54,819 nucleotides of DNA from the NCBI GenBank assembly GCA_934500865.1, contig CAKSUD010000002.1, forward strand, positions 1-54,819, read 5' to 3'. Shown here piece by piece: positions 5,494 through 51,310 of this stretch. The notes beneath the pieces were generated by a model, which did no database searches, had not been told where the DNA came from, and worked only from the letters and a program-made list of their open reading frames with translations. Numbering within the stretch: position 1 is the stretch's first letter; every line of letters starts with the position of its first letter. A program made the translations under genes and the position numbers. The stretch comes from an uncultured Clostridia bacterium. GTDB lineage: Bacteria > Bacillota > Clostridia > TANB77 > RGIG9151.

Positions 5494-5661
5494 GGCGGCA
5501 AAAAATATACCTTCCGCCAGGGGGCTATTGCGCCTACTTGGTGGAAGGTGCCACCTATCATGGTGATAGGTGAAGTGAACTGCCCAACTGAAAAGATATT
5601 ACATCAGAAAGAATAAAACACAAGTATAACAGCGTAAAACGACTCATAATAAGGAGATATA

Positions 5662-5715
5662 CACATTTACACCTTTTAAATATAAATATGTATTTAGATG
5701 AAAATGTGGTATTAT
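5662..5715 (+). promoter_or_regulatory. Operator box copy 1 (most degenerate) plus candidate -10, upstream of the AraC regulator gene
   Basis: The box is CACATTTACACCTTTTAAATATAAATATGTATTT (5662-5695). A TGgTATTAT follows at 5707-5715. A second extended -10, TGCTATAAT, lies at 5785-5793 nearer the gene. Confidence 0.5.
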
Positions 5716-5839
5716 AGTTGCGGATTGCAATAACTTTGTGGATTGAATTATATCGAAAAAACATTTGAAAAATCACAGAAAAGATGCTATAATATAATCA
5801 AAGAGTTTTTTATCAATTTTAGTTAAGGAGAGTAGCATA

Positions 5840-6688
5840 ATGCTTAAAGTGCCTCAAAAAGATAATGTAGGTACAGAAGAGTACTTTTATATAGGTGATA
5901 CAGTTATTAACTCTCTTTTTAACGTGTTGCTTGCGGGAATTACTGAGCCTGATAGTGAGTATTTTATATATCATCCTGCATGTAAGCTATGGGTTTTTGA
6001 ATATGTTATTTCGGGGGAAGGCTATATAGTTACTGAGAATAGGACTTATACTGTAACTGAGGGTGATTTTTATGCTATATCCGAAGCAACAGAGTGTTAT
6101 TATTATTCCGATAAAAATAATCCGATGAAAAAGATTTGGATAAACCTTACCGGTAATTTGGTGCGCCATCTTATGCGTGATTACGGACTAAACAATGAGG
6201 TTACAGTTTTAAAATGTGATATTCGTAATTTGTTTGAAGAAATGCTTGAAAACTTTAAAGGTGAAGATAATTACATTATTGCAACGCAATTAAAGATTCA
6301 TGAGATCATTGCAAAAGTATCTCCAATTCATACAAAGAAAGCAAACACAGATTTGATTGAGAATATTCATAATTATATTATTGAAAACAGTAATAAAAAT
6401 TTAGAAGTTGATGTTTTGTGCAAAGTATTCTTTATTTCCCGTGTACACATGACACAATTATTTAGAAAGAAATACGGCACTTCTCCTTACAAATTCTTTA
6501 TAAAAACAAAAATGGAATTGGCAGCGGATATGCTTATTAATACAGATATGTCTATTAAGGAAATAGCTTTGTCGCTATCTTATACTGATCCACATCATTT
6601 CAGTAATGCTTTCAATAAGTTTTTTAACTGTTTTCCAAGAGAATACAGGTTAAAAAACAAAATAGCACCCACTGATAATAACGATTAA
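5840..6688 (+). CDS. AraC family transcriptional regulator (cupin-like sensor domain plus HTH_18)
   Basis: RBS AAGGAG precedes the start. The C-terminal dual HTH reads ...VHMTQLFRKKYGTSPYKFFIKTKMELAADMLINTDMSIKEIALSLSYTDPHHFSNAFNKFF... Confidence 0.9.
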   Translation: MLKVPQKDNVGTEEYFYIGDTVINSLFNVLLAGITEPDSEYFIYHPACKLWVFEYVISGEGYIVTENRTYTVTEGDFYAISEATECYYYSDKNNPMKKIWINLTGNLVRHLMRDYGLNNEVTVLKCDIRNLFEEMLENFKGEDNYIIATQLKIHEIIAKVSPIHTKKANTDLIENIHNYIIENSNKNLEVDVLCKVFFISRVHMTQLFRKKYGTSPYKFFIKTKMELAADMLINTDMSIKEIALSLSYTDPHHFSNAFNKFFNCFPREYRLKNKIAPTDNND

Positions 6689-6695
6689 AACTTAA

Positions 6696-6740
6696 AACAA
6701 TATCAGAATTGTATGTTATCAATTTTGATATTGTTTTTTT
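6696..6740 (+). terminator. Putative intrinsic terminator after the AraC gene
   Basis: AACAATATCA (6696-6705) pairs with TGATATTGTT (6726-6735) and a T-run follows. The stem is AT-rich and the loop is long, so this is only moderate evidence. Confidence 0.5.
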
Positions 6741-6750
6741 GTATACCTTA

Positions 6751-6810
6751 CAAATTTACACCATTTGTGAACAAATATACATTTTTTTTAAAAAACAGAT
6801 ATGATATAAT
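6751..6810 (+). promoter_or_regulatory. Operator box copy 2 plus extended -10 promoter of the deacetylase/oxidoreductase/GH39-like operon
   Basis: The box is CAAATTTACACCATTTGTGAACAAATATACATTT (6751-6784). TGATATAAT lies at 6802-6810. The -10 hexamer starts 21 nt after the box end. Confidence 0.7.
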
Positions 6811-6842
6811 CAAATAAAAAAAGAAAATTTAGGATAGTTATT

Positions 6843-7690
6843 ATGCGATATAGAATTATGCGTTTTCCAAACGGTAAAACAAAGGCTTTGACTTTAAGCT
6901 ACGATGACGGCGTAGTGCAGGATAAGGTACTCGCCAAAATAACTGCCGAATACGGTATAAAATGCACCTTTAATTTAAGTGCCGGCTGGCTTAACCGTAA
7001 AAATCATTTGACCGATGACGAGGTAAAGGAGTATATTTTAGCAAACGGTCACGAGGTTGCAATTCACGGTAACTGCCATATAGCACAGGGTGTCGCATCG
7101 ATTAAGGACGGTATACGTGATATGCTTGACGGTAGACGCAATCTTGAAAATAGGTTTAATAGAATTATTAAGGGGATGGCTTATCCCGATTCAGGTGTCA
7201 ATTATACACAGTTTACTGATTATAGTGAGATAAAAGCCTATCTTCAAATGCTCGGCATAGTCTATGGTAGATCGTCGGGACACGATAATAATAATTTCAG
7301 AGTTCCTACCGATTGGCATAAATGGATTCCTACCTGTCACCATAATAATTCTAATTTATATAGTTGGTTAAATCAGTTCAAAGAGTTAAACAACAAAGAA
7401 GGATATCTTGCACATCTTCATCCAAGACTTTTTTATCTTTGGGGGCATACCTATGAGTTTGAAAATGATAATAATTGGGATGTAATTAAGGAATTTTGCA
7501 AACAGGCAGCAGACAGCAGTGATATTTGGTTTGCTACAATATAGAAATTTATCAATATGTAAAAGCCTTTGAGTCACTCGAATTTAGCGTTGATAATGAT
7601 ATTGTATACAATCCATCGCTTTTTGATGTGTATTTTCGACTTGATAATAATGAATATATGATAAAATCAGGTGAAACGCTTTATTTGTAG
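6843..7690 (+). pseudogene. Polysaccharide deacetylase (CE4/NodB-type) interrupted by a frameshift near 7538-7544
   Basis: NodB motifs LSYDDG and AIHGNCH are present. The frame stops at TAG 7542-7544 after ...IWFATI. The remaining C-terminus (IEIYQYVKAFESLEFSVDNDIVYNPSLFDVYFRLDNNEYMIKSGETLYL) continues in another frame to TAG 7688-7690. One extra A in ACAAT would restore ...WFATNIEIYQYV... Confidence 0.7.
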
Positions 7691-7748
7691 TGAAAATGTT
7701 ATATAATTTTGGAGATAAAAAATTTTAAATTCATATGGAGGTTTTGTT

Positions 7749-8747
7749 ATGTTAAATGCTGCAATAATTGGTTTTGGAGGAATTGCAAAGGGCGCACACC
7801 TTCCGGGCTACAAAACACTTGAAGAAAAGGGAAAGGTAAAGCTTGTTGCTGCTTTCGATATTCGTGAAGAAGCTTTTACTCAGGGCACGCAGATTAATCT
7901 TGCATCATCAGATGCATCTGATAACGAGGGTATACATTTTTATACTGATTTAGAAGAAATGTTAAGTAAGGAGAAAATTGATCTTGTTGACATCTGCGTT
8001 CCTACATATCTTCATAAGCAATATGCTGTTGATATGCTAAATAGAGGTTATCTTGTTTTAAGCGAAAAGCCTATGGCACTCTCATCTGCTGACTGCAAGG
8101 AAATGGTAGCAGCATCTAACGGCAGACTAATGATTGGTCAATGCCTTCGTTTTTCTTCTGAATATATTTATGCTAAAAAGTTGGTGGAAGAGGGTACATA
8201 CGGAAAGCCTACCTCTGCAACTTTTAGAAGACTAAGTGAATCACCTACATGGGGGTGGGATAATTGGTTTATGGATTATAACCGTTCAGGCGGTGTAATC
8301 TTTGATTTGCATATACATGACCTTGATATAGCACGCTTTATTTTTGGTGAACCTAAAAAGGTATCTTGTATTGCAGGAGGTCATCACATTGTAGAAGATG
8401 CTTTTGCACACTCGACTCTTTATTACGATGGTTTTACCGTTTTTGCTGAGGGCAGATGGGATCAAATTAAAATGCCGTTCGCAGCAGATTTTCGTATATC
8501 TTTTGAAAAAGCAAACATTGTATGTTCGGGCGGTCAGGTTACAGTTTATCAATATGATGGCGAAGAGTTTACAGTACCGCTTAACAGTGAAAGTATGTAT
8601 ATGAAGGAAATTGAATATATAACCGATATATTTGTAAATGGAGGAGAAAATACACAAAATCCCCCTGAAAGTGCGGCTGAAAGCATCCGTCTTGCTGAAA
8701 CGCTTAAAGAAAGTGCCAAGAATGACGGCGAAGTACTAAAATTTTAA
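7749..8747 (+). CDS. Gfo/Idh/MocA family oxidoreductase
   Basis: RBS GGAGG precedes the start. It has an N-terminal Rossmann motif AIIGFGGIAKGAHLPGY and the family motif VLSEKPMA. Confidence 0.88.
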   Translation: MLNAAIIGFGGIAKGAHLPGYKTLEEKGKVKLVAAFDIREEAFTQGTQINLASSDASDNEGIHFYTDLEEMLSKEKIDLVDICVPTYLHKQYAVDMLNRGYLVLSEKPMALSSADCKEMVAASNGRLMIGQCLRFSSEYIYAKKLVEEGTYGKPTSATFRRLSESPTWGWDNWFMDYNRSGGVIFDLHIHDLDIARFIFGEPKKVSCIAGGHHIVEDAFAHSTLYYDGFTVFAEGRWDQIKMPFAADFRISFEKANIVCSGGQVTVYQYDGEEFTVPLNSESMYMKEIEYITDIFVNGGENTQNPPESAAESIRLAETLKESAKNDGEVLKF

Positions 8748-8763
8748 TCAAGAGGTGCAAAAA

Positions 8764-10110
8764 GTGAAAAACATATCTATTGATTTTACTAAAGATTGCG
8801 GTAAATTAAAGCCTATGCATGCCGTTAATAATGGACCTATTTATAAGTTCTCTGCTGACCAAAGAATTACAAATATGGATGCGTGGAAAGAAGCGGGCAT
8901 ACCTTATGCCAGAACTCACGATTCCGCCTTTTGCAGTACATACGGCGGACCTCATTGTGTTGACGTAAATCTTATTTTTACAAATTTTGATGCAGACCCT
9001 TATGATGCTGCAAATTACGATTTTGCTTGTACGGATGAGTATTTTAAGGTTATTAATTATTCGGGCACAAAGATATTTTATAGATTAGGTGCCAGTATTG
9101 AGCACTGGGTTAAAAAGTATAATACATTGCCACCAAAAGATTTTACCAAATGGGCAGTTATATGTGAGCATATAATTAAGCACTATACTGAGGGTTGGGC
9201 AGACGGCTTTAAGTATGATATTGAATACTGGGAAATCTGGAACGAGCCTGACCTTGACCCTGATGATGCTACTAATAAGCGAACTTGGGGCGGTACAAAG
9301 GCACAGTTTTTTGATTTTTATGCAACTGCCGCAAAGCATCTTAAAGAGTGCTTTCCGCATCTTAAAATAGGCGGTCCTGCGCTCTGCTGTGACTTGGATT
9401 GGGCAAGACATTTCCTTAAAGAAATGAAAAAGCGTGGCGCTGCTGTTGACTTCTTCTCTTGGCACCGCTATGCTTATGAGCCTGTATTTATTGCTGAAAC
9501 AGCACAGACAATTCGTAACATTTTAGACCAAGAAGGTTTTGAGAATACAGAGAGTATAAACAACGAGTGGAACTATGTAAAGGGATGGTCGGGTGATGAG
9601 TGGTTATATTCACTCCGCAGTGAAAAGAACTTAAAGGGTTCTTCCTTTATTCTTGGTACAATGTGCGCTTGCTCTTATGCTCCTATTGATATGCTTATGT
9701 ATTATGATGCCCGTCCTTGTGCTATGAATGGTATGTTCGCTACGGATTTTGTCTGTGATTGTTTAAAAGGATATTATCCGTTTAAAATGTTTAATGAGCT
9801 TTATAAATTGGATAATGCAGTAGCGGTAAAAAATGATACTAATTTGTTATCTGCCGCCGCTGTTAGCGAAGATAAAGCTGCTATTGTATTCACACATTTC
9901 TGTGATAACGATGAAACACCTACCGAAAAAGTTAAACTTAATATGCAAGGTTTTGGCGGTAAAAATGGTGTTAAAGTAAGTTGTTATTTGCTCGGCTGGG
10001 ATAAAGATTTAGAACTTGTTAAGGAAGAAATATTATCGGGCGATAATTTTGCAACAGTTCTTGAAAGCGAACTCTATAGCAGTTATCTTGTGGTGCTTGA
10101 AAAGATTTAA
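8764..10110 (+). CDS. Clan GH-A TIM-barrel glycoside hydrolase, GH39-like
   Basis: YWEIWNEPDLD matches the acid/base region and SINNEWNY is a candidate nucleophile region. The GTG at 8764 lies 8 nt after AGAGG. The ORF track starts at GTG 8755, which abuts the RBS. Confidence 0.65.
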   Translation: MKNISIDFTKDCGKLKPMHAVNNGPIYKFSADQRITNMDAWKEAGIPYARTHDSAFCSTYGGPHCVDVNLIFTNFDADPYDAANYDFACTDEYFKVINYSGTKIFYRLGASIEHWVKKYNTLPPKDFTKWAVICEHIIKHYTEGWADGFKYDIEYWEIWNEPDLDPDDATNKRTWGGTKAQFFDFYATAAKHLKECFPHLKIGGPALCCDLDWARHFLKEMKKRGAAVDFFSWHRYAYEPVFIAETAQTIRNILDQEGFENTESINNEWNYVKGWSGDEWLYSLRSEKNLKGSSFILGTMCACSYAPIDMLMYYDARPCAMNGMFATDFVCDCLKGYYPFKMFNELYKLDNAVAVKNDTNLLSAAAVSEDKAAIVFTHFCDNDETPTEKVKLNMQGFGGKNGVKVSCYLLGWDKDLELVKEEILSGDNFATVLESELYSSYLVVLEKI

Positions 10111-10119
10111 GGTGATATT

Positions 10120-11136
10120 ATGTTAAAGGTTGCAGTTATTGGTTGCGGAAGTATATCCTGTATGCATTTAGAACCGGCGGTAGCTTTGGAAGAAGCAGAG
10201 CTTGTTGCGGTTTGTGATATAAAGCCTGATAGGGCAGAGCATGCTGCTCAAAAATATAACGCTAAGCCGTATACAGATTATATGGGAATGTTCGAAAAAG
10301 AACAACTTGATGCGGTGCATATTTGTCTTCCTCATTATTTACATACAAAGGTTGCTTGTGACGCCTTTAAAAAGAGGATAAATGTACTTTCCGAAAAGCC
10401 AATGAGCATAAAGTACGAGGATGCCATAGAAGCGGTAGAATTAGCAGAAAAATGCGGCGTTAAGTATGGAGTGATTTTTCAGTGCCGGTATAACACACCT
10501 TCAATGCTTGTAAAACAGCGAATTGAGGACGGTAAACTCGGCAAAGTAAAATGTGGAAGAACAACCCTTACATGGTATCGCTCCGATAATTACTATGACC
10601 ATTCCGATTGGAAAGGTACATGGGAAAAGGAGGGTGGCGGCGTAATAATCGACCAAGCCATACACTCTATCGATCTTGCTAACTGGATGATAGACAGTAT
10701 ACCTATAGAAATTCAGGCATCGCTTCATAATCGCAACCACGAAAATATGGTAGTTGAGGATACGGGTGAAGGAATTATAAAGTATGAAAACGGAGTTCTT
10801 TTGTCCTTTTATGCTATGAATAATTATTTTGTTGACGAACCTATTGAAATAAGACTTGTTTGTGAAAATGGTAAGGCTATTTTCTCCTATGATAGAGCCG
10901 AAATCAGTTATAATGACGGCACATTTGAGGCGGTAAACAATATGCCGCAAAAAATGGTTTCGTATACGGGCGGTAAGGATTATTGGGGCACACAACACGC
11001 TGTTCAAATCAGACAGTTCTACCGTTCTGCATTAGGTCTTGAAGAACTTGAAATTTCAGGCAAAGAGGCTCTTAAAATTCAAAAAATCATTTGTGAAATT
11101 TATAAAAATGGCATAAAATATCTTAATAATAAATAA
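10120..11136 (+). CDS. Gfo/Idh/MocA family oxidoreductase (second copy)
   Basis: It has the Rossmann motif VAVIGCGSIS and the motif VLSEKPMSI. It is a paralogue of the 7749 gene. Confidence 0.88.
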   Translation: MLKVAVIGCGSISCMHLEPAVALEEAELVAVCDIKPDRAEHAAQKYNAKPYTDYMGMFEKEQLDAVHICLPHYLHTKVACDAFKKRINVLSEKPMSIKYEDAIEAVELAEKCGVKYGVIFQCRYNTPSMLVKQRIEDGKLGKVKCGRTTLTWYRSDNYYDHSDWKGTWEKEGGGVIIDQAIHSIDLANWMIDSIPIEIQASLHNRNHENMVVEDTGEGIIKYENGVLLSFYAMNNYFVDEPIEIRLVCENGKAIFSYDRAEISYNDGTFEAVNNMPQKMVSYTGGKDYWGTQHAVQIRQFYRSALGLEELEISGKEALKIQKIICEIYKNGIKYLNNK

Positions 11137-11148
11137 TTGCATTGTGCA

Positions 11149-11177
11149 GGCAGAATGTTATGTCATTCTGCCTTTTT
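11149..11177 (+). terminator. Rho-independent terminator
   Basis: GGCAGAATG (11149-11157) pairs with CATTCTGCC (11164-11172) and TTTTT follows. Confidence 0.85.
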
Positions 11178-11240
11178 GTTATATGACGGATTTTTGATGA
11201 TATAACAGTAAAGTTTTAGATAAAACTGCAAAAATACATA

Positions 11241-11300
11241 CAAATTTGCACCTTTTGTTATCAAATATGTATTTATTTTTCTAAACATATATATTATAAT
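11241..11300 (+). promoter_or_regulatory. Operator box copy 3 plus -10 promoter of the long transporter/enzyme operon
   Basis: The box is CAAATTTGCACCTTTTGTTATCAAATATGTATTT (11241-11274). TATAAT lies at 11295-11300 and again starts 21 nt after the box end. Confidence 0.7.
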
Positions 11301-11334
11301 TTTTTTATGATTTAGCAACTAGGAGTTGTATGTT

Positions 11335-13242
11335 ATGAAATTACGATATCCAGCGGTACCTATTGTTACTTGTACCCCTGATTTTAGTCTTTGGTCGACA
11401 AGTAATAATTTGACCGACTCAGATTTACAGCACTGGTCAAATGCAAGACAGCCTTTAAGAGGTGTGCTTAAAATAGATGGTAAGTCTTATGGGTTTCTAG
11501 GTAATACCGAATGTGAAAAAATGACACAGACAAATTGTAATGTTGATGTGTTTTCTACGGTTTATAGCTTTACCGCAAACGAGGTGGATCTAACTCTTAA
11601 ATTTACAACACCACTTCTTTTGGATGATTTAAAGGTAATGGCAAGACCGATTACTTATGTTGATATTGAGTGTGTGCGTAAAGATGGACAAAATACACCC
11701 ACTACAGTAGAACTTACAATGTTTGACAACGTGTGTGTGTTTGAAGGCGAAGAAAATGCATCTGTTGCTTGGACATCAAATGAATATGGATGTGTTTCTG
11801 CAAAGGTAGGTAACAAGGAGCAGAAACCTCTTTCATACGATGGAGATATGAAACCAACTAATTACGGTTATGCTTATATATCCGTAATTGAAAATACCGA
11901 TAAAGCTTCTGCACACGTGAACAAACTTTCAGATAAGAACGAAAGACATAGCATAACAGTTTCTGCCACAACCAATGATGGTGGTAAGTTTAATTTTATT
12001 TTGGCTTATGACTCAATTTATTCTATTGAGTATTTTGGCGAAAAGCTTGATTGCGTTTGGAAAAATGAAGTCGACACAATGGAAAAACTAATATCTATTG
12101 CTTTTAAAGAGCGTGAGCATATTTTAGAACGGTGTCAAAAGTTTGCTGCGGAATTAAAGGATGAAGCAATTGAAGAAGGTGGAGAAAAATACTGTGACTT
12201 GCTTACTCTTGCGTACCGCCAGACAATAGGTGCTCATATAATGGCCGAGGATAATGATGGTAATGTGCTCTTTATTTCGAAAGAATGTGGTAGTGGCGCA
12301 CACGGTGCAACGGTAGATGTTACATATCCGTCAACACCTCTTTTCCTTAAATATTGTCCTGAACTTATAAAGGGAATGGTTAGACCAATTTTTCGTTATG
12401 CTAAAACAGAGGAATGGTCAAATCTTTATAAATTTGCACCCCATGATGCAGGCTTTTATCCGAAAATAAATGGTCAGACATATCCGGAGGGTAGAGGACT
12501 TGACGCTGAAACGCAGATGCCTGTTGAAGAATGTGCTAATATGCTTGTTATAAGTGCGACACTTTCCAAAGCTGACGGAAATGCAGATTTTGCAAAGACA
12601 GAACGTCCACTCCTTAAACAGTGGTATGATTATTTGCTTGAGTTCGGTTATGACCCCGGTGAACAACTCTGTACAGACGATTTTGCAGGAAGGCTTTCTC
12701 ACAACTGCAATCTTTCAATTAAGGCGATAATGGGTATTGCATCCTATGGAATTATTTGTGATTATTTGGGTGAAAAGGAAGAAGCTGAAGAAGCTATGAA
12801 TATTGCTAAGGCCTTTGCACTTAAGTGGGTAGAGGACGCAAAGGCAGAAAACGGAACCTATCGCTTGTCATTTGATATTTCTGATAGCTTTAGTTTGAAG
12901 TATAATGCTATTTGGGATATGCTTTTTGACACAGAAATTTTCCCGAAGGATTGCTTTAAATACGAACTTAAATCTTACATAACAAACCATATGGATAAAT
13001 ACGGGACGCCTCTTGACAATCGTAAGGACTATGCTAAATCTGACTGGATTTTATGGTGTGCAACTATGATGGAATCAAGAGAAGATTTTGAAAAAATGAT
13101 TTCACCTTTATGGGATTTTTATAATGAGTGTGAGGCAAGAATACCTATGACAGATTTATATCACACAAGCGATGGAACTGTTCAACAGTTTAGAAACAGA
13201 ACTGTACAAGGCGGTTTATTTATTAAACTTTTAAAGTTTTAA
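11335..13242 (+). CDS. Glutaminase-A-like putative glycoside hydrolase (DUF5127/DUF4965/DUF1793 architecture)
   Basis: The N-terminus LRYPAVPIVTCTPDFSLWS...HWSNARQPLRGVLKIDGKSYGFLGN matches the signature I recall for this family. The length is about 635 aa. AGGAG lies upstream, and TTG 11326 is an alternative start. Confidence 0.65.
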   Translation: MKLRYPAVPIVTCTPDFSLWSTSNNLTDSDLQHWSNARQPLRGVLKIDGKSYGFLGNTECEKMTQTNCNVDVFSTVYSFTANEVDLTLKFTTPLLLDDLKVMARPITYVDIECVRKDGQNTPTTVELTMFDNVCVFEGEENASVAWTSNEYGCVSAKVGNKEQKPLSYDGDMKPTNYGYAYISVIENTDKASAHVNKLSDKNERHSITVSATTNDGGKFNFILAYDSIYSIEYFGEKLDCVWKNEVDTMEKLISIAFKEREHILERCQKFAAELKDEAIEEGGEKYCDLLTLAYRQTIGAHIMAEDNDGNVLFISKECGSGAHGATVDVTYPSTPLFLKYCPELIKGMVRPIFRYAKTEEWSNLYKFAPHDAGFYPKINGQTYPEGRGLDAETQMPVEECANMLVISATLSKADGNADFAKTERPLLKQWYDYLLEFGYDPGEQLCTDDFAGRLSHNCNLSIKAIMGIASYGIICDYLGEKEEAEEAMNIAKAFALKWVEDAKAENGTYRLSFDISDSFSLKYNAIWDMLFDTEIFPKDCFKYELKSYITNHMDKYGTPLDNRKDYAKSDWILWCATMMESREDFEKMISPLWDFYNECEARIPMTDLYHTSDGTVQQFRNRTVQGGLFIKLLKF

Positions 13243-16086: not shown

Positions 16087-16982
16087 TGAAGCTTTCTTTT
16101 AAGAAAAATCGTGATGGAAGTTTTTCGTATGTAGCCTTAATGCTGCCTTATTTAATAATATTTTTCACATTTACCGTTTTGCCTGTTCTTATTTCAATGT
16201 TTTTAAGCTTTACAGATTTTAATGTAATGGAACTACCGGTTTTTACTGGACTTAAAAATTACCAGCGTCTGTTTATGGACGACCCGCTTTTTAAAACAGC
16301 ACTTACTAACACGCTTTTATTAGCTATTATAATAGGCCCTGGCGGTTACATACTTTCTTTCGGCTTTGCTTGGATTTTAAATGAATTTAATCCTAAACTT
16401 AGAAGTCTTTTGACGCTATTCTTGTATGCGCCTTCGATTAGCGGCGGTGCATATATGGTGTGGGCAATTATTTACAGTACTGACCGTTATGGTTGGCTTA
16501 ACAGTATTTTAATGAGCCTTGATATTATTTATGAGCCTATTGCTTGGACTACCGATACCAAATATATGTTCCCGGCAGCAGTAATATCTATTTTATGGAT
16601 GAGCCTCGGTACAAGTTTTTTGTCCTTTATTGCAGGTTTTCAGACTATTGACTCAAGGCTTTATGAGGCGGCAGCGGTTGACGGTATCAGAAACCGTTGG
16701 CAAGAGTTATGGTATATAACTCTACCTACAATGAAACCGCAACTTATGTTCGGTGCAGTTATGAGTATTACAGGCTCCTTCGGTGTTGGTGGTGAAATTT
16801 CAAGATTGTTCGGAAATCCCACAACAAACTATAAATTGTACACATTAGTTATGCAACTTGGTGACTATGGAACGAGCCGTTTTGAGATGGGTTACGCCTC
16901 TGCTATTGCTGTTGTACTGTTCTTCCTTATGATTGGTGCAAACGGACTTGTAAGCAAGATGCTTACAAAGGTTGGACAATAG
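16086..16982 (+). CDS. Carbohydrate ABC transporter permease (MalF-like)
   Basis: It has six TM segments and the EAA-type loop YEAAAVDGIRNRWQELWYITLP. Confidence 0.9.
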   Translation: MKLSFKKNRDGSFSYVALMLPYLIIFFTFTVLPVLISMFLSFTDFNVMELPVFTGLKNYQRLFMDDPLFKTALTNTLLLAIIIGPGGYILSFGFAWILNEFNPKLRSLLTLFLYAPSISGGAYMVWAIIYSTDRYGWLNSILMSLDIIYEPIAWTTDTKYMFPAAVISILWMSLGTSFLSFIAGFQTIDSRLYEAAAVDGIRNRWQELWYITLPTMKPQLMFGAVMSITGSFGVGGEISRLFGNPTTNYKLYTLVMQLGDYGTSRFEMGYASAIAVVLFFLMIGANGLVSKMLTKVGQ

Positions 16983-17013
16983 GAAATTTTAGAAAGGAGA
17001 AAAAGTTGTAAAT

Positions 17014-17883: not shown

Positions 17884-17884
17884 G

Positions 17885-19969: not shown

Positions 19970-20012
19970 CGTAGGCTATATTCATTTTTTTAAAACAGAT
20001 AGGGAGGATAAG

Positions 20013-23447: not shown

Positions 23448-23460
23448 GGAGGGAAATTGT

Positions 23461-24372: not shown

Positions 24373-24480
24373 CATATATGTATAATTACAAATATGGGGG
24401 TGGTCAATGCTCTTTTATTGATTTTGCCTTAAAAAAGATTTTTGAGGCACACAAAAAATTTAAGGAGATGTGGAATTATT

Positions 24481-38333: not shown

Positions 38334-38348
38334 AAAAGAGGTTGATTT

Positions 38349-41300: not shown

Positions 41301-41504
41301 AGTAAAATTTATTATAATGAGCTTATTAAGAATAAAACTGATGAGTATTTGCTTACGGTCCAATGTACAAACGGTGAATACAACTGTGCTATAAACGGTG
41401 AATATCTCTTTAGTTTTGGTTTTAAGGAAAAAATGGGTGGCGCAGTATCGCTTTGTACCGAAACAGCCGATGCATTGTTTGAAGACTTTAATATTATGGT
41501 TTAG
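38349..41504 (+). CDS. Cytoplasmic divergent GH13-like enzyme fused to LamG/DUF1080-like modules (1051 aa)
   Basis: It has no signal peptide. It contains FHDQGYKYFYPLEP, CGDIEGVKEKLDYIKDIGADAVYMNPL, RVMLDAVVVF, IDAWRFDSS, LFLGEN, YTHFDTHDVPRL and MTYLGSPTLYYGDE. C-terminal modules end in ...SGYIGYFGGKYKVLNFMV. Confidence 0.75.
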   Translation: MDILFHDQGYKYFYPLEPKNTDSVTIRLQADRKLKSVVLLLKEKDSKQIEEIELKYEKQDVIERFSLYVCEIPPKTDPYRYCFKSETEDGTVKYLNVFGESDELNIKSGFYVIPDFTTPDWSKGIFWYSVLPHAFRNGNLLNDKTGEIEAVPFGGGVCHPYCSRYCGDIEGVKEKLDYIKDIGADAVYMNPLWTCKDAAGYGPDNFDMLDPAYCNDKELSEFVKTAHEKDLRVMLDAVVVFSTTTSNLCNQNDEWIQKGALVDQNSKFCDYFHFKRWPDEYQNYFASLLFDFNKDIVKDYLYRNEDSHLQRYLKPPYNIDAWRFDSSDLLWGEGLNAVQIAADIKTYLKKINPDMLFLGENYGNMDEGVWETCWNMHHLFNLREWILKKYDMKFFLWKMRMSLNERSRPLALSMYTHFDTHDVPRLYPQVDEKERLLSGIICQMTYLGSPTLYYGDETGDKNLNIGYYHNFNWDTDSWDTDFYKYYKLLGTLRHENNVFKKGIVRVGLIDNERELLSYGRFDQNGATVTVVNPNKVIKGLEIPVDIYDISDGATLTDIISGMKYTVENGVITADVLGGGAVYVLDLREDFPSLLQITYPDTLKVNGIKTPERDWNYRIELLKKSGDFKLVVGDNAENGIYLSYTNKALSFGRIVSDEKIPFFTENANTDDITLQIERIGTRYRAFYCVDDGIWRLLGENLFASFNSPSLYINGIVEKQSFGNIAFGGNDLFVPISYKGFDGEWDKLNSSRDLLKLQTLDSADNYAYVNGGIERVADGFGTFVYHKSLKNFKINVSLLPLDDGECGILFGADSNAQGGYKFFLNKNGEYSLCNNGGSIIDGIVPIDEFGADFIIEAFANSLVLYHNNKVIFFDRLGDVSGYIGYFGGKYKVLNFMVCDLSEGVTTQNVFWNIKGNKAAFKGTGLLSVKGRAYSDFKASVKIKIAENTEKLGCAGILTAANESLLPRYDGLFFAISSDGNLVVKSNSKIYYNELIKNKTDEYLLTVQCTNGEYNCAINGEYLFSFGFKEKMGGAVSLCTETADALFEDFNIMV

Positions 41505-44616: not shown

Positions 44617-47600
44617 ATGTTTAAAAAAATTCAAAAGCGTTTATTCGTTATTTTGCTTACGGTTACCATAATCGCGGCAGAATGTGCGGTATCATTTTTC
44701 CCCGTAGCAGCAGCAAGTTACAGCACAAATGACGGATATTTCCATGACCAAGGCGGCGACTATATGTCGCCTGTGGCACCCACCTCTTCACAGGCGGTAA
44801 CCTTAAAGCTTCGTACACCGTCTGCTGATTCAAGTAAAAATGACAAGATATATATACGCTATACTACTAATAATGGTGATAGTTGGACTGATATTTCTAT
44901 GACAAAAACAGGCTCGATATTAGACGGCATATTTGATATTTGGCAAGGAACTATACCTGCTACAAGCAGTCGTTATTATTATCAGTTCAAGTTAGTTGAT
45001 GATGGTTTAATATGGGATACTACAAATTATTTTGGGTTAGGCGGAAAGAGTAGTAGTCAGCTGCCAATCGCAAACTGTTATCAGGTATGGCCGAATTTTT
45101 CGACGCCTGAATGGTCACACGGCGCTTATTGGTATTATGTAGCACCAACATCTTTCTTTAATGGTGACAGCCTTAATGATATAGGTGGGGATATGTCTGA
45201 CTATGCAAGCGGTAAAAAAATGAACGCTGACCACTACAAAGCTACCTATGGCGGAGATGTTAAGGGTGTCAGTAAAAAGCTTTCATACATAAAAGACCTC
45301 GGTTGTACAGGTGTTTATCTTAATCCCTTACATTTATCATATAATGCAATCGGCTATGGTATTATGAATAACTATATGCTTGATTCACAGTATACTACCG
45401 AAAACGAATATAAGCAGTTTGTGAACAGCGCACATAACAACGATATGCGAGTTATGTTCGATGTTTTGGCTCACTCCGTAATTGATGCTAATGTTTGGTT
45501 TAACTCCTATAATAAATATCCTGTAGTGGGTGCATATAATTCTGCAAGTAGTGCTTTCCGTAATATGTTCCATTTTGACAGTAACGGTGCTGTAACTAAA
45601 TTTCTATCATCAAATGCGCTTGATTATGCAAATGATGTTACAAAGAATTTAATGTATAAAAATGAGGACTCTTATTTAAGCCGTTATTTAAGTGACGAAT
45701 ACGGTGCAGATGCTCTACGTTTTGATGCAGGTGCACATCTTTACGGAACAGGACTTACCATAAATCGGATAACCGAAGATTTAACTAGTACATTGAAGTC
45801 AAGATATCCCGATAAGCTTCTTATTTGCGAGAATTACTCCGATGATAGTAATTCTACATCGCATTTAACGAGTGGTTGGGATACCTGCTGGAATACGCCA
45901 ATGATTTATTGGATCAGAGGTCTTGCAGAGGGCACGCAGACAATAAGTGGTTTTGTATATCGCAGTATACATGATGTACTTACTTGGCCGCGTGATATGG
46001 TGCTTTCCATGCAACAGCTTATAACCTCTCACGATCTTGAGCGTTTACAAAATTCAGCAGATGAAACAGGCAGAAGAATGGCAAGAATTTTCCAAATGAC
46101 CTACGTTGGTTCTCCAATGCTTTATTATGGTGATGAAACCGATGCTGAGAGTCTTTACAACAGCAAGATAGAGCAATTTGACTGGAATAAAGATAACTGG
46201 AATATGAATACCTATAATCTTGTAAAGGGTTTAGGTCAGCTTAGAAATGAATATACCTGTCTTAAAAACGGTGTTGTAAAGTTCGGTCAGTCAGATAACG
46301 ACGCAAAGACATTAAGTATGGCTCGTTGGGATAAAAATGGTGCTGTAATTTCTTTGCTTAACGGAAATAACTCTGCTGTGGATATGAGCGTAAACGTTGC
46401 GCAGTTTGAGGTTGCAAACGGTACAGTTCTCACAGACTATTTTACAGGCAAAACCTATACTGTATCAAACGGTAGCATAACTGCAAGCGTACTTGCAGGC
46501 GGTACTGTTTTGGTAACAGGCGGAAATACAGTTTCAACTATCGGCAAATACAACAAAACACTTTTAGGAGGTAGTGGCACTGCTACACTCGGTAGCGATT
46601 CAACTACCATTACATTAAGCGGCAAAGGCTCTGTTACAACCACATCCGACAGCGGACTTTTTGTATATAGCGAGGCTGACAGCGGTTTTGAGCTTGGAGC
46701 TGATGTTAGCACCACAGGAACAGTTGCACTTGCTTTGCGTGATACAAAAGATGCACAGTCAAAAGGCTACTATGCAGTAGTAAACGGTAGTAATAAAACT
46801 ATTTCTGTTTATAAGCGTGAAGCCAATAATCAAGCGTCAACACTTGTTACAACCGCAAATTATACCGACAGTATCCTTAAAATTAAGCTTGTGAGAAGCG
46901 GTAATAATGATTTTAGTGTTCAGACTTTTGAAAAATCCGCTTGGACAACTGTTGCTAATTCACAGGTTAAGTTCTCATTAAGTTCAAAACTCTATGCGGG
47001 CGCAATCAATTTAAGCGGTACTGCTACAATAGGCAATATGGGTATTACTATTTATGACAACACCTATTATGACGGATTTATAAGTGATAAGATAGTTGCG
47101 GAATCCGCTACTTATACTGTACAAAACATTTCACTTGATAAGACTGTTTATGGTAAAGCAAAGCTTTCTTCTGAAATCTACACAGAGAGAACAGGCAACA
47201 CAAACGGCGGCTACGATGCGCTTATTGTACACCTTGGTAATGTAACACACACCAGTGCTTCTTGGAGCGAAGATGTAACAGGTGATTGGTACTTGTATTT
47301 ATCCCGTGAATACGGCTTAGAAATGCGTGTTAAAAAGTTGGACGGTTCTGAATGGTATTGGGGTGCACATTATAAAACCCTTAATTATCCTGACAGTAAT
47401 AGTCTTGAATTTAAAGGTCCGTATACCTTAAAATATGCTTTATCAAATGATAATTTAAAAGTTTGGATTAACGGACAGCTTATGTATGATTACGATTATA
47501 CATCTTGGTTTTCTGTTTATAGCGGAAATGTTACGACCAAATTAAATTTCTTTGCTACCGGATATGGTATGACTGAAAGCAGAACTCCTGTTACAAAGGT

Positions 47601-50502
47601 AACAGATTACAAGGTCTGGACAGATGAAACGGATAATAATACCTTGTCAGCAAGCTTTGCCGCTTCGGGAAATTATACTGTATCAGGCGGCAAACTAAAA
47701 TTCACAGCAAGCGGTCTCAACACCTATCTTAACACAGCTCCCCAAACAGACTGGACAGTTAAAACAGTTGTAGGCGCTACTTCGGGCTATGCAGGCGCAG
47801 CAGCCTATGCAAACGAAAATGACTTTATTTTAGGCGGAAGAAACGGTGGCAAAATAATCCTTGCAAGGGTAATCGGCGGCAATGTTGTTGCTTATGATGC
47901 TGTTGCAGATAAAAGAACAACAGCGGAATTGCAGCTACAACTTCAAAAGGTAGGTAACTATTTCTCGCTTTCATACCGTTATAATGACGAATATGAGTGG
48001 AAAACACTTTCTAACCGTATTTTCGCATCTTATACAACACTTGAATATGGTCTTGCGGCAAGCAATACAGCCGAATTTGATTATATTACCTTAGGTAATA
48101 TGATTGATGAAGGTGTATCACTTTGCACACCTATAAGTAAAGGGAATGAGGTTGAGTTTAATTATTCAAAATTAAATTCTGTTACAAATATGGTAAAGTG
48201 GAATGCACCGTCAGGCACTTGGGAGAATGTTGCAGGCGGACTTTCACAAACAGGCACAAGTGAAAGCTATTATGTTACAAAATCACAGTTTGCTGATTTT
48301 AAAGCTGAGGTAACACTCGGTGTCAGTGGTAGCGGTTATTCAGGCGTTATTTTTGCAAGCGAAAACGGAAAAATAACAAATGGATATTCTCTAACACTTA
48401 AACAAAACGGAGTATTGTATCTTAATATAGATAATAGTCTATATGATATGAAAAACGTTTCGTTTGATGCAGATGGCAAGTTAAGAATTATAATTGAGCG
48501 TATAGGCGACAGAATTATTATTTACACAAATCAAAACCCTACGGTTGCATTTAATATTTTGGATACAACATATACAGAGGGTTATTTCGGATTTACAACC
48601 AGTAATGCAGAAGGTTATTTTGGGAATTATACAGTATTCTCATTAGCTGATAGTTGGACTGAAGAAACAACTACCTACATTGGTTCTGATAGAATTACTT
48701 ATGCTGATAATTCCGTAAGACTGAATGCTAACAGCGAAAAGACAGTAGCTTTACATCAAAAAGGAATTAGCTATACTGATGTGTTAGCAAGTGTTGAGTT
48801 AAGCTACACTACTGCTGAAAACAGCTACGCAGGTCTTTCATTTGCTTCTACAGAGGGTACAAATCCTTTTGATAAGGGAATAGTAATAGCACTTAAAGAC
48901 AATAGTACTGTTGTTGTTTTAAAGGATGGTACAGAGGTTGCATCAGAATTGATTACTGCAAACTCAAGTAATCAGCTCAGTGTAAGCATTAAAAACGGCA
49001 AATATGAGATTTTCTTTAACGACCTTATCGCACCTGTTCTTACATATTACGGCGGTAAAATGGGCGGTAATGTAGGTGTCGCTGCCAAAAATGTAGATGC
49101 AGCATTTACTAGCCTTATAATTGATGATATAAGCGGTACAAACGTATTTGATTCACTTGGATACTATAAAGCAAGTGTGAATTCTGCTTCTAAAAGTGTG
49201 GTTGAAGGTGAGATAGTAACTTTACACACTCCAACAAACAGCTTAGGCTATACAAATAACGGCTATTCATATAGCATTGTTAATAATTCGGGTCTGGTAA
49301 ATACTGAGTATTTTGCCCTTAGCAGCTCGAATTTTGAGGCAGATGGTTGCTATGAGGTGTCAGGTATTCTAAAGAGTGGTGCGTATACTAGCAATAGTAA
49401 TATGGATCTCTATTACGCTATTACAGTAGCATTCAGAAAGGTTACATATAGTGATGGTACATCAGGATATTTAAAGCTCGCTTTAACAAAGGCAAGCGGT
49501 GGTATTTCTATAATTTTTGATAACGATTATTATGAAGCAAATAATAGAAAATACCTTAAGTATGATGTTAAATATGATGACGGTACATACATACGAAATG
49601 ACAATATAGATAATCGCTTTAGAATCATAAGTGATGATAAAACAGTTTCTGTATGGCTCAATGGTACTCTTGTTATAGATAGCTTTGATTATTCTGCTAA
49701 AGCTACAAATGTAGCACCCGCTGCAGGTATTGGATATAATTGTTGCAGATGCAATATAACTGATTTTACTATCAATAAAGCTTCATCCTCAAGTACTATA
49801 ATTAAAAATGTAGGTACGAACGGGTTTATTACGCTTTCTAACGATTCACCAACAGCAGGCGAAAAGGTTACTATCACGAAGAACGGAATAATTGCAAGCG
49901 GTACATTTAATGTTTATTATCTTAATTATGATAAGGTTGAAAAGATAGTTGCTGAAAGAATAGGTTATCGTGAAGATGAATCAAGTGTAGATACATATAG
50001 CTTTGTTATGCCTGATACAGAAAATCCGGTTGTTATCACCTGTGATTTTACTGATGACACTACGGCTAATATTTCAGCACTTGGTGCACAATATCGTGAA
50101 AACGGTACTAAAGCGGATATTCGTTTTGGCACAAGATTGGGTTATAAGGTTACAGATGGCATTATTACAGTAAGTGATGTCGATTATGAGCTTATTGAAA
50201 CCGGTACACTTATAACTACAGTTACAGCACTTAATACGGTGGAGGGTACACACGAAGAACTCGTAACACTTGGTTCAGAGTCACTTTGGGGCGAACAGCA
50301 CAAATATATTAAAAATGTAAAACGCACAAAGTATTATGACTACTGTAATGAATATATTGATTTTGCTGTTTCTGTTACAGGAATAAGCGATTTTGATAAG
50401 GTTTATGTAGCAAGAGGATATGTGCTTACAAAGGATACAAGCGGAAATAATGTTGTATTCTACACAGATGTTATTTATCGTACTGTAAACGGAGTTAAAT
50501 AA
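44617..50502 (+). CDS. Secreted giant (1961 aa) divergent GH13-like enzyme with at least six C-terminal beta-sandwich (LamG/DUF1080-like and B-like) modules
   Basis: RBS AGGAGG and a signal peptide are present. It contains FHDQGGDYMSPVAP, YGGDVKGVSKKLSYIKDLGCTGVYLNPL, RVMFDVLAHS, ADALRFDAG, LLICEN, LITSHDLERL and MTYVGSPMLYYGDE. The later modules include ...EGYFGFTTSNAEGYFGNYTV and a B-like module with NYPDSNS...KVWINGQ. Confidence 0.75.
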   Translation: MFKKIQKRLFVILLTVTIIAAECAVSFFPVAAASYSTNDGYFHDQGGDYMSPVAPTSSQAVTLKLRTPSADSSKNDKIYIRYTTNNGDSWTDISMTKTGSILDGIFDIWQGTIPATSSRYYYQFKLVDDGLIWDTTNYFGLGGKSSSQLPIANCYQVWPNFSTPEWSHGAYWYYVAPTSFFNGDSLNDIGGDMSDYASGKKMNADHYKATYGGDVKGVSKKLSYIKDLGCTGVYLNPLHLSYNAIGYGIMNNYMLDSQYTTENEYKQFVNSAHNNDMRVMFDVLAHSVIDANVWFNSYNKYPVVGAYNSASSAFRNMFHFDSNGAVTKFLSSNALDYANDVTKNLMYKNEDSYLSRYLSDEYGADALRFDAGAHLYGTGLTINRITEDLTSTLKSRYPDKLLICENYSDDSNSTSHLTSGWDTCWNTPMIYWIRGLAEGTQTISGFVYRSIHDVLTWPRDMVLSMQQLITSHDLERLQNSADETGRRMARIFQMTYVGSPMLYYGDETDAESLYNSKIEQFDWNKDNWNMNTYNLVKGLGQLRNEYTCLKNGVVKFGQSDNDAKTLSMARWDKNGAVISLLNGNNSAVDMSVNVAQFEVANGTVLTDYFTGKTYTVSNGSITASVLAGGTVLVTGGNTVSTIGKYNKTLLGGSGTATLGSDSTTITLSGKGSVTTTSDSGLFVYSEADSGFELGADVSTTGTVALALRDTKDAQSKGYYAVVNGSNKTISVYKREANNQASTLVTTANYTDSILKIKLVRSGNNDFSVQTFEKSAWTTVANSQVKFSLSSKLYAGAINLSGTATIGNMGITIYDNTYYDGFISDKIVAESATYTVQNISLDKTVYGKAKLSSEIYTERTGNTNGGYDALIVHLGNVTHTSASWSEDVTGDWYLYLSREYGLEMRVKKLDGSEWYWGAHYKTLNYPDSNSLEFKGPYTLKYALSNDNLKVWINGQLMYDYDYTSWFSVYSGNVTTKLNFFATGYGMTESRTPVTKVTDYKVWTDETDNNTLSASFAASGNYTVSGGKLKFTASGLNTYLNTAPQTDWTVKTVVGATSGYAGAAAYANENDFILGGRNGGKIILARVIGGNVVAYDAVADKRTTAELQLQLQKVGNYFSLSYRYNDEYEWKTLSNRIFASYTTLEYGLAASNTAEFDYITLGNMIDEGVSLCTPISKGNEVEFNYSKLNSVTNMVKWNAPSGTWENVAGGLSQTGTSESYYVTKSQFADFKAEVTLGVSGSGYSGVIFASENGKITNGYSLTLKQNGVLYLNIDNSLYDMKNVSFDADGKLRIIIERIGDRIIIYTNQNPTVAFNILDTTYTEGYFGFTTSNAEGYFGNYTVFSLADSWTEETTTYIGSDRITYADNSVRLNANSEKTVALHQKGISYTDVLASVELSYTTAENSYAGLSFASTEGTNPFDKGIVIALKDNSTVVVLKDGTEVASELITANSSNQLSVSIKNGKYEIFFNDLIAPVLTYYGGKMGGNVGVAAKNVDAAFTSLIIDDISGTNVFDSLGYYKASVNSASKSVVEGEIVTLHTPTNSLGYTNNGYSYSIVNNSGLVNTEYFALSSSNFEADGCYEVSGILKSGAYTSNSNMDLYYAITVAFRKVTYSDGTSGYLKLALTKASGGISIIFDNDYYEANNRKYLKYDVKYDDGTYIRNDNIDNRFRIISDDKTVSVWLNGTLVIDSFDYSAKATNVAPAAGIGYNCCRCNITDFTINKASSSSTIIKNVGTNGFITLSNDSPTAGEKVTITKNGIIASGTFNVYYLNYDKVEKIVAERIGYREDESSVDTYSFVMPDTENPVVITCDFTDDTTANISALGAQYRENGTKADIRFGTRLGYKVTDGIITVSDVDYELIETGTLITTVTALNTVEGTHEELVTLGSESLWGEQHKYIKNVKRTKYYDYCNEYIDFAVSVTGISDFDKVYVARGYVLTKDTSGNNVVFYTDVIYRTVNGVK

Positions 50503-50511
50503 ACATTTTTT

Positions 50512-50547
50512 GCTCACCGAGACAGTGGTGCCTTGGTGAGCACTTTT
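50512..50547 (+). terminator. Rho-independent terminator of the last cargo gene, which also looks like the target hairpin of a group IIC intron
   Basis: GCTCACCGAG (50512-50521) pairs with CTTGGTGAGC (50532-50541) and ACTTTT follows. The intron-like sequence starts at 50549. Confidence 0.8.
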
Positions 50548-50548
50548 A

Positions 50549-50731
50549 GTGTGCTCGGCACGCGTAATAACTTGGTGGTGAAAATCCGCTACAGGCTTGG
50601 CAGTAGGAACTGTTAGCCGAAGACAAGGGCATCCGCCGTGAGACGGAGTCTGAAAGAAGTCGGATTCGGAGACTTAAAAGTGTCTCTGCGGGCAAAGCCT
50701 CGCTCTGACGAACAGAAACTGAATATAAGGC
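50549..50731 (+). mobile_element. Group IIC intron 5' segment (domain I), with no intron-encoded ORF. It is either a truncated remnant or part of an ORF-less derivative.
   Basis: It reads GTGTGCTCGGCACG...GGCAGTAGGAACTGTTAGCCGAAGACAAGGGCATCCGCCGTGAGACGGAGTCTGAAAGAAGTCGGA...TCTGACGAACAGAAACTGAATATAAGGC. This parallels, block for block, the 5' domain I of the Oceanobacillus iheyensis group IIC intron as I remember it. It sits 8 nt after a terminator stem, which is the class C target. The 3' extent is uncertain. Confidence 0.6.
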
Positions 50732-50854
50732 ATTCTTTGTACTAAGAAAAGATTTAATGCTTACGGAAATGCTATAGAGGAATATATGCCAATTCAGAAT
50801 TTATATGGATGATTGGAATAATGCGATATAGAATAAAGTATTTCTTAAATAACA

Positions 50855-50900
50855 GAGCGACGAGCTTGTGAAAAGCAAGTTTGGCGCTCGTTCTTTTTTT
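50855..50900 (+). terminator. Hairpin plus T-run, most simply an intrinsic terminator (alternative: a degenerate domain V-like hairpin of the IIC element)
   Basis: GAGCGACGAGCTTG (50855-50868) pairs imperfectly with CAAGTTTGGCGCTC (50876-50889), and T7 lies at 50894-50900. An AGC triad and a GAAAA loop resemble DV, but the 2-nt bulge is missing. Confidence 0.45.
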
Positions 50901-51310
50901 ATTCGACAAAATAACACATAATTCTACATTTTAAAGGGGGCGGCACCGATGTACAGTATAAACCTTGCTGCATACAAAACAAGGGAAAGAATGAGCGCGC
51001 CATAGGCGACTGCAAGGTGAGTAAGTGAAAAATAAAAGAAGGCATAAGGTGAAGATATAGCTGTAAGGGGTTTAAAACTCCGAACAAGCTGTATTTTAAA
51101 GAAAGCGGGCTGTAATAATGCCCGTAAAATTAACGAAATTAAAGAAGAAAAGACCAATAAAATTGCCGCCCGAAAAGGCTTTGAAATTGGTCGGACCTTT
51201 TGCGTTCTGTATATAAAGCAGCTGCGGCGGCGGTGTAAATGCGGCTGCCGCAGCCCTCCGTATCAATCGTTTTTGAGATTTTCAGGAATGATTGAACGGA
51301 GGAAAATAAA

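Follow-up and report, generated by a model that had tools for sequence, protein, structure and literature searches.

The window analysed here is an entire metagenome contig of 54,819 bp (CAKSUD010000002.1) from an uncultured Clostridia bacterium, on which the long open reading frames (ORFs) lie nearly all on the + strand. From left to right, it contains the end of a conjugation module (a primase-like gene, an intron-split VirD4/TraG coupling-protein gene, and an HTH_36 gene), a block of 24 genes for the use of a glycan, and the beginning of a regulation and recombination module with a sigma-like gene and recombinase genes (Table 1). An earlier note on this DNA, made from the sequence alone, had proposed a conjugative element carrying a glycan-utilization locus as cargo. 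Following up this proposal, we find that the window very probably belongs to a chromosomal integrative and conjugative element (ICE) found in gut Clostridia, of which it covers the right-hand two thirds, and that the slot for accessory genes is filled here by a 45.2-kb locus that is foreign in composition and resembles the gram-positive polysaccharide utilization loci (gpPULs). Related loci used in the comparison are denoted by L and a number.

Table 1 Features of the 54,819-bp window in order of position (aa, amino acids)
Feature	Position	Strand	Evidence and remarks
DUF3991/Toprim primase-like protein, C-terminal part	10–582	+	Pfam Toprim_2 3.8e-16, DUF3991 9.8e-15; cut by window start
VirD4/TraG coupling protein, exon 1	561–1794	+	Pfam T4SS-DNA_transf 6.5e-19; NCBIfam conju_CD1115 142.6 bits
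Group II intron	1795–4509	+	Rfam RF02004 181 bits, RF00029 54.9 bits; starts GTGCGA, ends CTAT
Reverse-transcriptase/maturase ORF of the intron	2506–4380	+	Pfam RVT_1 2.2e-41
VirD4/TraG coupling protein, exon 2	4510–5246	+	Pfam TraG-D_C 1.8e-24, T4SS-DNA_transf 1.6e-20
HTH_36 DNA-binding protein	5233–5493	+	Pfam HTH_36 2.4e-15; last gene of the conserved conjugation module
Conserved non-coding two-hairpin motif with conserved tail	5494–5628 (hairpins ~5512–5573)	+	Aligned in 42 elements
Cargo insert	~5621–50850	+	45.2 kb, 24 genes, all on + strand
Promoter-like site of the AraC gene	5765–5793		TTGAAA-17-TATAAT; promoter scan 11/12
AraC-family regulator	5840–6688	+	Pfam HTH_18 4.5e-20, AraC_binding 6.2e-9
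CE4-type deacetylase, two GFO/IDH/MocA oxidoreductases, GH39-like hydrolase, GtaA-type six-hairpin protein	6843–13242	+	Pfam
Two ABC importer sets (934-aa solute-binding protein, four permeases), Yip1/NHL membrane protein, DUF5696 protein, 382-aa protein	13282–25590	+	Pfam SBP_bac_8/1, BPD_transp_1 x4; DUF5696 1.4e-95; 382-aa protein without Pfam match
Degradative block: three giant GH13 enzymes, xylose-isomerase-like TIM barrel, GH78-like six-hairpin protein, metallophosphoesterase, unmatched proteins	25601–50502	+	Pfam; GH13 enzymes of 1395, 1051, and 1961 aa (29239–33426, 38349–41504, and 44617–50502)
Truncated 5' fragment of a second, different group II intron	50632–50819	+	Rfam RF02001 36.7 bits (cut-off 32), local E 2.6e-5
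Start of right backbone: terminator-like hairpin with U-run (50851–50900), then upstream region of the sigma-like gene	50851–51310	+	95–96% nucleotide identity to L114–L127 from 50851
Sigma-70 region-4-like regulator	51311–51880	+	Weak Pfam: Sigma70_ECF 2.3e-4 (at cut-off), Sigma70_r4_2 3.6e-4 (below cut-off)
pemK RNA motif	52053–52121	+	Rfam RF02913 67.4 bits
52-aa ORF	52323–52481
Large serine recombinase 1	52570–54131	+	Pfam Resolvase, Recombinase, Zn_ribbon_recom; frameshifted near 53715
Recombinase-domain protein	54128–54819	+	45% identical to the 288-aa protein of L029; cut by window end

Both borders of the insert could be located by DNA homology. On the left, the homology with more than 40 left-anchored relatives ends at 5610–5623, about 125 bases past the stop codon of the HTH_36 gene, and on the right, that of eight relatives (L114–L118, L120, L123, and L127) begins exactly at 50851; the right-side relatives came from a metagenome scan with the recombinase, which yielded many human-gut contigs with a module 95–96% identical in nucleotides. 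Thus, the insert extends from about 5621 to 50850. Composition changes at the same two places. The G+C content falls from 55% to 29% between 5400 and 5700, the left backbone exons having 49–52% G+C and a G+C content at third codon positions (GC3) of 0.57–0.64, and the insert 36.4% (30–40% in 1-kb windows) and a GC3 of 0.26–0.36. The rise on the right side is real but modest (42.6% G+C and GC3 of 0.43–0.48 in the right flank, with 37% in the sigma-like gene). Moreover, the two halves of the insert agree closely in tetranucleotide usage (r = 0.985), whereas the correlation between the insert and the left backbone is about 0.3. A low-G+C stretch within the left flank is the intron of the TraG gene (32.5% G+C; GC3 of its reverse-transcriptase ORF, 0.22) and not cargo. 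The earlier note had seen by eye a drop near 5590 and a recovery after about 50900, and had bracketed the cargo by 5494–51310, all in agreement with the breakpoints now found; its description of the flanks as much richer in G+C holds for the left one but only moderately for the right one, and its about 30 co-directional genes are indeed co-directional but number 24.

The search for direct or inverted repeats common to both cargo junctions gave chance-level matches only. Behind the last cargo gene, just past a terminator-like hairpin and near the breakpoint at 50851, lies the 5' fragment of a group II intron, in which domain V/VI was not found. Its similarity to the intron of the TraG gene is at chance level only, and six right-anchored sister elements have no such fragment where their cargo ends. 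When cargo and backbone were joined by recombination, the exchange may have run through a copy of an intron.

The two flanks belong to one architecture. In three relatives (L077, L082, and L029), both modules are contained within a single 20-kb view, in the order HTH_36 gene, gap, sigma-like gene, and three recombinase genes (about 520, 288, and 545 aa), with a gap between the HTH_36 and sigma-like genes of 0.86, 3.2, and 5 kb, respectively; the pemK RNA is present in both of the two that were scanned for it (L077 and L082). Since these relatives carry the two modules close together, the flanks of the window can be identified as the two ends of one architecture split by the insert, and the near-empty elements that the earlier note had suggested looking for thus exist. 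Its further assumption that cargo usually sits between the HTH gene and the sigma and recombinase genes corresponds to the variable accessory region of the relatives. Indeed, the content of this slot differs among about 60 left-anchored and 8 right-anchored relatives: the 443 ORFs located downstream of the HTH_36 gene in 60 relatives form more than 320 clusters, among whose representatives we recognized, by eye, ABC exporters, two-component systems, XRE regulators, tyrosine integrases, and large surface proteins, and the near-identical right modules are each preceded by different genes upstream of the point equivalent to 50851.

The cargo of these sister elements is mostly carbohydrate-related. 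Among the right-anchored ones, L114 carries a DUF5696 protein, an ABC permease, a beta-helix protein, a GDSL esterase, and a GH35 enzyme; L115, GH89 and a GDSL esterase along with fucose-pathway-like genes (an FGGY kinase, a FucU-type mutarotase, and a class II aldolase); L120, two GH36-type enzymes together with a glycyl-radical enzyme and its activase; L121, a GtaA-like protein, GH36, GH31, and a transposase; L117, GH3 and GH13; and L128, ABC exporters. On the left-anchored side, a GH78 enzyme is found in L018, homologues of the large binding protein and of the permeases of the window (31–59% aa identity) in L047 and L086, and homologues of the xylose-isomerase-like TIM barrel and the GFO oxidoreductase in L053. 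The 45-kb insert is the largest in this comparison, in which the relatives were viewed over at most 10 kb. At the other end of the sister elements, the sequence following the third recombinase gene is common for 1.6–2.5 kb and then gives way to unrelated flanks. This divergence indicates that the near-identical modules sit in different insertion contexts. In L120 (15708–15824) and L123 (10477–10593), the flank begins with a 5S rRNA gene, followed in L120 after 1.3 kb by RNase P RNA (17169–17541); these RNA genes are a chromosomal landmark for the right end of the L120/L123 variant.

The left flank is the end of a conjugation module, in keeping with the reading of the earlier note, and the assignment of its Toprim/DUF3991, TraG/VirD4, and HTH proteins is borne out by Pfam. 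A scan with the C-terminal part of TraG, taking one genome per species, gave 80 genome loci, nearly all in metagenome-assembled genomes of Clostridia, with 64–90% aa identity to exon 2; the order Toprim–TraG–HTH_36 is kept across these loci, the HTH_36 gene being syntenic in nearly all relatives. Two other assemblies of the same element (L004 and L098; 99.99–100% nucleotide identity) reach 2.4–2.5 kb further to the left than the window, and contain the complete primase gene (322 aa), an Abi_2 gene on the opposite strand, and the C-terminal 292 residues of a relaxase. The latter are 94% identical to the 736-aa relaxase of L023, a protein with Sel1 repeats that matches NCBIfam MobP3 (377 bits; cut-off 150) and Pfam MobL (PF18555, 7.9e-35). 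Upstream of the primase gene, relatives encode a VirB4-like ATPase, an NlpC/P60 hydrolase, pentapeptide/DUF6329 and DUF6103 proteins, a MobC-like protein (recognized by eye and from its position, without a Pfam or NCBIfam match), and this relaxase of about 730 aa. The ATPase was identified in relatives with 81–92% aa identity in TraG (P-loop_TraG 7.7e-15, AAA_10), and that of L023 matches PF12846 (35.7 bits; cut-off 27.5). Thus, the flanks are not the isolated remnants that would have contradicted the earlier note: a relaxase, by way of L004 and L098, and a type IV coupling protein, of 656 aa after removal of the intron, both belong to this element. All of its assemblies stop about 3 kb upstream of TraG. 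A plasmid origin was considered as well; no close relative of the coupling protein was found among plasmid records, and as the best match is a fragment of 50% coverage, such an origin is not supported.

The abortive-infection (Abi_2) gene lies between the relaxase and primase genes (L004 895–1830; L098 938–1873), and a reverse-strand gene occupies the same position in several relatives (L019, L050, and L077), which suggests a second, smaller accessory site.

The exon limits of the interrupted TraG gene were set by comparison with the uninterrupted gene of L019. Joining 1794 to 4510 gives an open frame of 656 aa that reads CDEFG-T-LPKIES as in L019; judged from this junction, the intron should splice out and leave an intact coupling protein. 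An intron at the same place in TraG is found in L017 (71–1105) and L025 (5060–6241), with reverse transcriptases 98–99% identical to that of the window, despite TraG proteins that are only 89% and 75% identical, respectively, and more distant introns (reverse transcriptase 53% identical) split TraG in L066 and L085. From these occurrences, the coupling-protein gene looks like a recurrent homing site for introns.

In the right flank, the earlier note had listed a sigma-70-like regulator, a small ORF, and tandem large serine recombinases. The sigma-like gene (with weak Pfam scores), the small ORF, and a serine recombinase are present, but the first recombinase is frameshifted and the second gene lacks the resolvase catalytic domain. 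The hairpin with which this flank begins has a folding energy of −20.1 kcal/mol (z = −3.6). The sigma-like protein is 93–98% identical in L112, L114, L120, and L127 and 36–41% identical to the syntenic proteins of L082 and L029; the syntenic protein of L077 does not match that of the window, yet shows a clear Sigma70_r4_2 domain (4.6e-12). A different, unrelated sigma-like allele replaces 51318–51928 in L115, L117, and L118. No identical protein turned up for the sigma ORF or the frameshifted recombinase, and searching viral contigs for relatives of the sigma protein and the recombinase yielded none. The pemK RNA motif is found in the backbone of all relatives checked; in L077 (12625–13270) it is followed by a PemK toxin gene, and in the lineage of the window by the 52-aa ORF and not by a PemK gene. 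At the position equivalent to 52457–52469 of the window, close relatives have an additional 1.1–1.4 kb (L114 8766–9882; L115 8514–9899), with two ORFs that by eye resemble an antitoxin (101 aa) and a PIN toxin (137 aa). The frameshift of recombinase 1 was found by alignment to the intact 519-aa protein of L029, with the frame switching at 53715. The second recombinase-family gene is the middle one of a three-gene recombinase module, and its homologue in L077 likewise has the Pfam Recombinase domain only; the third gene, which follows in L111–L120, lies here beyond the end of the window. No tRNA gene as a possible integration target was found in the window.

The gene content of the cargo, with families assigned by Pfam and five proteins without a family match, is that of a complete glycan-foraging system. 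A gpPUL is reportedly defined, by Sheridan et al. in 2016, through the co-location of a regulator, a carbohydrate transporter, and at least one polysaccharide-degrading enzyme. All three are co-located here, in a co-directional and tightly packed array of one AraC regulator with its own promoter-like site, two ABC importer sets, three GH13 enzymes, and GH39-like, GH78-like, and CE4 enzymes; no match to the SusC or SusD families was found among the cargo proteins with Pfam. Two of the three giant GH13 proteins (1395 and 1961 aa) combine a neopullulanase-like core with DUF1349 and 3-keto-disaccharide-hydrolase-like modules, and the third (1051 aa) has neopullulanase 1 of Thermoactinomyces vulgaris (TVAI) as its nearest solved structure (4e-56). 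The 1961-aa enzyme begins, by eye, with a signal-peptide-like segment, and is very rare: in a set of 5.8 billion proteins, only 7 relatives lie below E = 1e-50. For the GtaA-like and DUF5696 proteins, no solved structure was matched in a sequence search. The combination of genes points to an alpha-glucan-containing complex glycan as the putative substrate, which is probably decorated. The pairing of oxidoreductases, a TIM barrel, and 3-keto-disaccharide-hydrolase-like modules presumably recalls oxidative glycoside-cleavage pathways; nothing relevant was found in the literature on GH13 enzymes combined with 3-keto-glycoside pathways.

Since the window is one complete metagenome contig, with repeat-prone backbone at either end, chromosomal glycan genes might have been misjoined to ICE fragments during assembly. 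However, the left junction was recovered in contigs from 10 samples and the right one in contigs from 3, at 99.3–100% identity to the window, and these contigs derive from several assemblers (MEGAHIT-, SPAdes-, and scaffold-style) and several human-gut cohorts including the Hadza. The reproduction of the junctions across samples, assemblers, and cohorts excludes an assembly chimera for all practical purposes. Every one of these assemblies breaks within the backbone on both sides, which fits the presence of several backbone copies or variants in the community.

Loci related to the cargo also occur without ICE genes nearby. In L099, the GtaA-like, binding-protein, and permease genes are 88–96% identical (aa) to those of the window, in a different arrangement, with a divergent AraC homologue (62% identical) and an added esterase; L101 and L105 have AraC homologues 80–84% identical, adjoining peptidase genes; and L106–L109, gut contigs of 27–80 kb, contain similar multi-GH13 loci with Yip1/NHL, DUF5696, and ABC genes. 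Closest is L012, a contig of 2.9 kb that is 100% identical to the window from 5695 on, except for a 226-bp deletion (6733–6958) that truncates the CE4 gene. Upstream of the cargo (L012 1–520), it contains the 3' end of a GH10 gene that is 96% identical to L110 (9933–10323), a chromosomal contig (41% G+C) that lacks the cargo and has an NTP-transferase gene next after the GH10 gene; between the GH10 end and the cargo lie 130 unique bases with a tiny ORF and a strong ribosome-binding site. From the cargo start behind the GH10 gene, it follows that the cargo, or at least its beginning, exists outside the ICE, and this one short contig represents either the donor context or a second insertion. The junction of L012 could mean that the cargo is an independently inserting island, which reached the ICE slot, as well as one or more chromosomal sites, by itself rather than being captured passively, and the tyrosine integrases in the slot of several relatives (cluster C4; recognized by eye, without a family search) would be in keeping with such behaviour. 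Nevertheless, no integrase, transposase, or terminal repeats were found in or around the cargo, L012 provides the left junction only, and an exact search for its junction in JGI metagenomes gave no match; we therefore regard an autonomous island as very improbable.

Several observations weigh against an active, cargo-carrying ICE. Type IV secretion genes, oriT, and element ends are all absent from the window, and the upstream conjugation genes are known only from relatives of 64–92% aa identity. Recombinase 1 is interrupted at about 53715 in an A-run and thereby divided into ORFs of 394 aa (52570–53754) and 150 aa (53679–54131), and, unlike close relatives, the window has no toxin–antitoxin pair between 52457 and 52469. 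No flanking repeats or recombinase genes explain the loading of the cargo. Finally, all copies are nearly identical (at least 99.3%) with the same junctions, neither an excised circular form nor a host flank or second host context was observed, and transfer would account for the recurrence no better than the spread of a single strain. These points could be accommodated by a decayed ICE: having delivered or captured the locus at one time, the element would now be fixed in one gut species as a genomic island, and its repeated occurrence in metagenomes would reflect how prevalent that species is. We consider such decay unlikely on the following grounds. The frameshift, at a site covered by one assembly of metagenomic origin, may be an assembly error as well as a real mutation; going by L111–L120, another full serine recombinase should lie downstream; and TraG can be restored by splicing. 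Moreover, the breaks at the backbone on both sides in every assembly are expected of a multi-copy mobile backbone, and the sister elements sit in different flanks.

In this lineage, the conserved gene order runs from a VirB4-like ATPase, an NlpC/P60 hydrolase, small conserved genes, a MobC-like protein, and a MobP3/MobL relaxase with Sel1 repeats, through the DUF3991/Toprim primase, VirD4/TraG, HTH_36, and the accessory slot, to the sigma-like regulator, the pemK RNA (with a toxin gene after it in some relatives), and a trio of a serine recombinase, a recombinase-domain protein, and a serine recombinase. Presumably, the recombinases would excise the element as a circle, which the relaxase would nick and the coupling protein, with its intron spliced out, would pass to the secretion system. 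The cargo would ride passively, and the recipient would gain the use of an alpha-glucan-containing complex glycan, the three giant neopullulanase-like GH13 enzymes being taken as secreted. The slot may have gained the locus itself by recombination with a low-G+C chromosome.

The left edge of the slot is formed by the conserved two-hairpin motif, which lies directly 3' of the HTH_36 gene, ahead of the variable region, and closes the left backbone. Its sequence includes ...GTGAACTACCCAC...ACAGCAGAAAGAA, and has a minimum free energy of −39.3 kcal/mol (z = −5.7). The consensus from RNAalifold was poor and shifted, and was replaced by a manually registered structure, which we tested against slid controls: 86.8% of the cells pair, as compared with at most 55% for the controls, with modest covariation. 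Many G–U pairs suggest that the + strand is the folding one. No match to the motif was found in Rfam. It is conceivable, if improbable when all its parts are taken together, that this ICE lineage is a specialized shuttle for carbohydrate modules in the human gut, that cassettes are exchanged at one fixed site marked by the two-hairpin motif on the left and the terminator hairpin on the right, and that the motif acts in cargo loading or in early expression after transfer instead of being a passive intergenic remnant.

Lactococcus lactis has conjugative transposons for sucrose and alpha-galactosides (Tn5276 and Tn6098), whose cargo serves small oligosaccharides with few genes and whose backbone is not known to be related to that of the window element. 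As Firmicutes ICEs with cargo for carbohydrate catabolism, they are nevertheless akin to it, and carbohydrate utilization has been described as a trait conferred by ICEs in Lactococcus (PMC10983677). SusC/D loci have been described on mobile elements of Bacteroidetes (PMC6907783); the ICE-borne polysaccharide utilization loci of Bacteroides, such as the porphyran locus, likewise place a whole regulated system of glycan sensing, import, and degradation on a gut conjugative element, but belong to another phylum and element family and use SusC/SusD, whereas the present locus has ABC importers with solute-binding proteins. Also similar are the carbohydrate-import modules on ICEs and integrative and mobilizable elements (IMEs) of Faecalibacterium and other gut Oscillospiraceae and Lachnospiraceae, which are assigned to the Tn1549 family (PMC12084326). 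These elements share with that of the window a chromosomal location in gut Clostridia, a VirD4 protein with PF02534 and PF12696, a VirB4-type ATPase with PF12846 (here in L023), and accessory ABC sugar importers together with glycan-degrading genes. They differ in having a MOBP7 relaxase with PF03432 and a tyrosine integrase, in contrast to the MobP3/MobL relaxase and the three-gene serine-recombinase module of the present lineage, which also has the DUF3991/Toprim primase; topoisomerase III was not found among the ORFs screened, a set that includes only part of the upstream clusters. Because the relaxase is of the MobP3/MobL type, without a match to PF03432 at E ≤ 1e-3 in the nearest relative's protein, the element falls outside the Tn1549 family as that paper defines it. 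The best NCBIfam model for TraG is conju_CD1115, of the CD1115-family VirD4 proteins (NF045973) of the CTn-type elements of Clostridioides difficile; it scores 142.6 and 89.5 bits for the two halves, the simple sum of which stays below the cut-off of 250 bits, and this comparison concerns the coupling protein alone.

Carbohydrate modules on ICEs and IMEs are thus an established principle (PMC12084326, PMC6907783, and PMC10983677), and the novelty that the earlier note had claimed for Clostridia was too strong in view of those documented in gut Oscillospiraceae (PMC12084326). What is new here is the element lineage, the size and content of the cargo (45 kb and 24 genes, far above the carbohydrate modules of the sister elements in views of at most 10 kb), and the fixed breakpoints common to many carbohydrate modules. 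The window provides a well-delimited case of a complete 24-gene glycan-foraging system in a transmissible-type element of gut Clostridia, for which the evidence for such elements is thinner than in Bacteroides, and a good example of a known route by which gut bacteria exchange diet-related traits. The recurrence across cohorts including the Hadza makes the substrate of the locus worth identifying, and the identical breakpoints make cargo swapping directly testable. Moreover, modules for alpha-galactosides, GH89/fucose-type substrates, beta-galactosides, and beta-glucosides occupy the same slot of the same element lineage, which could therefore serve as a marker for diet-linked gene flow among Clostridia.

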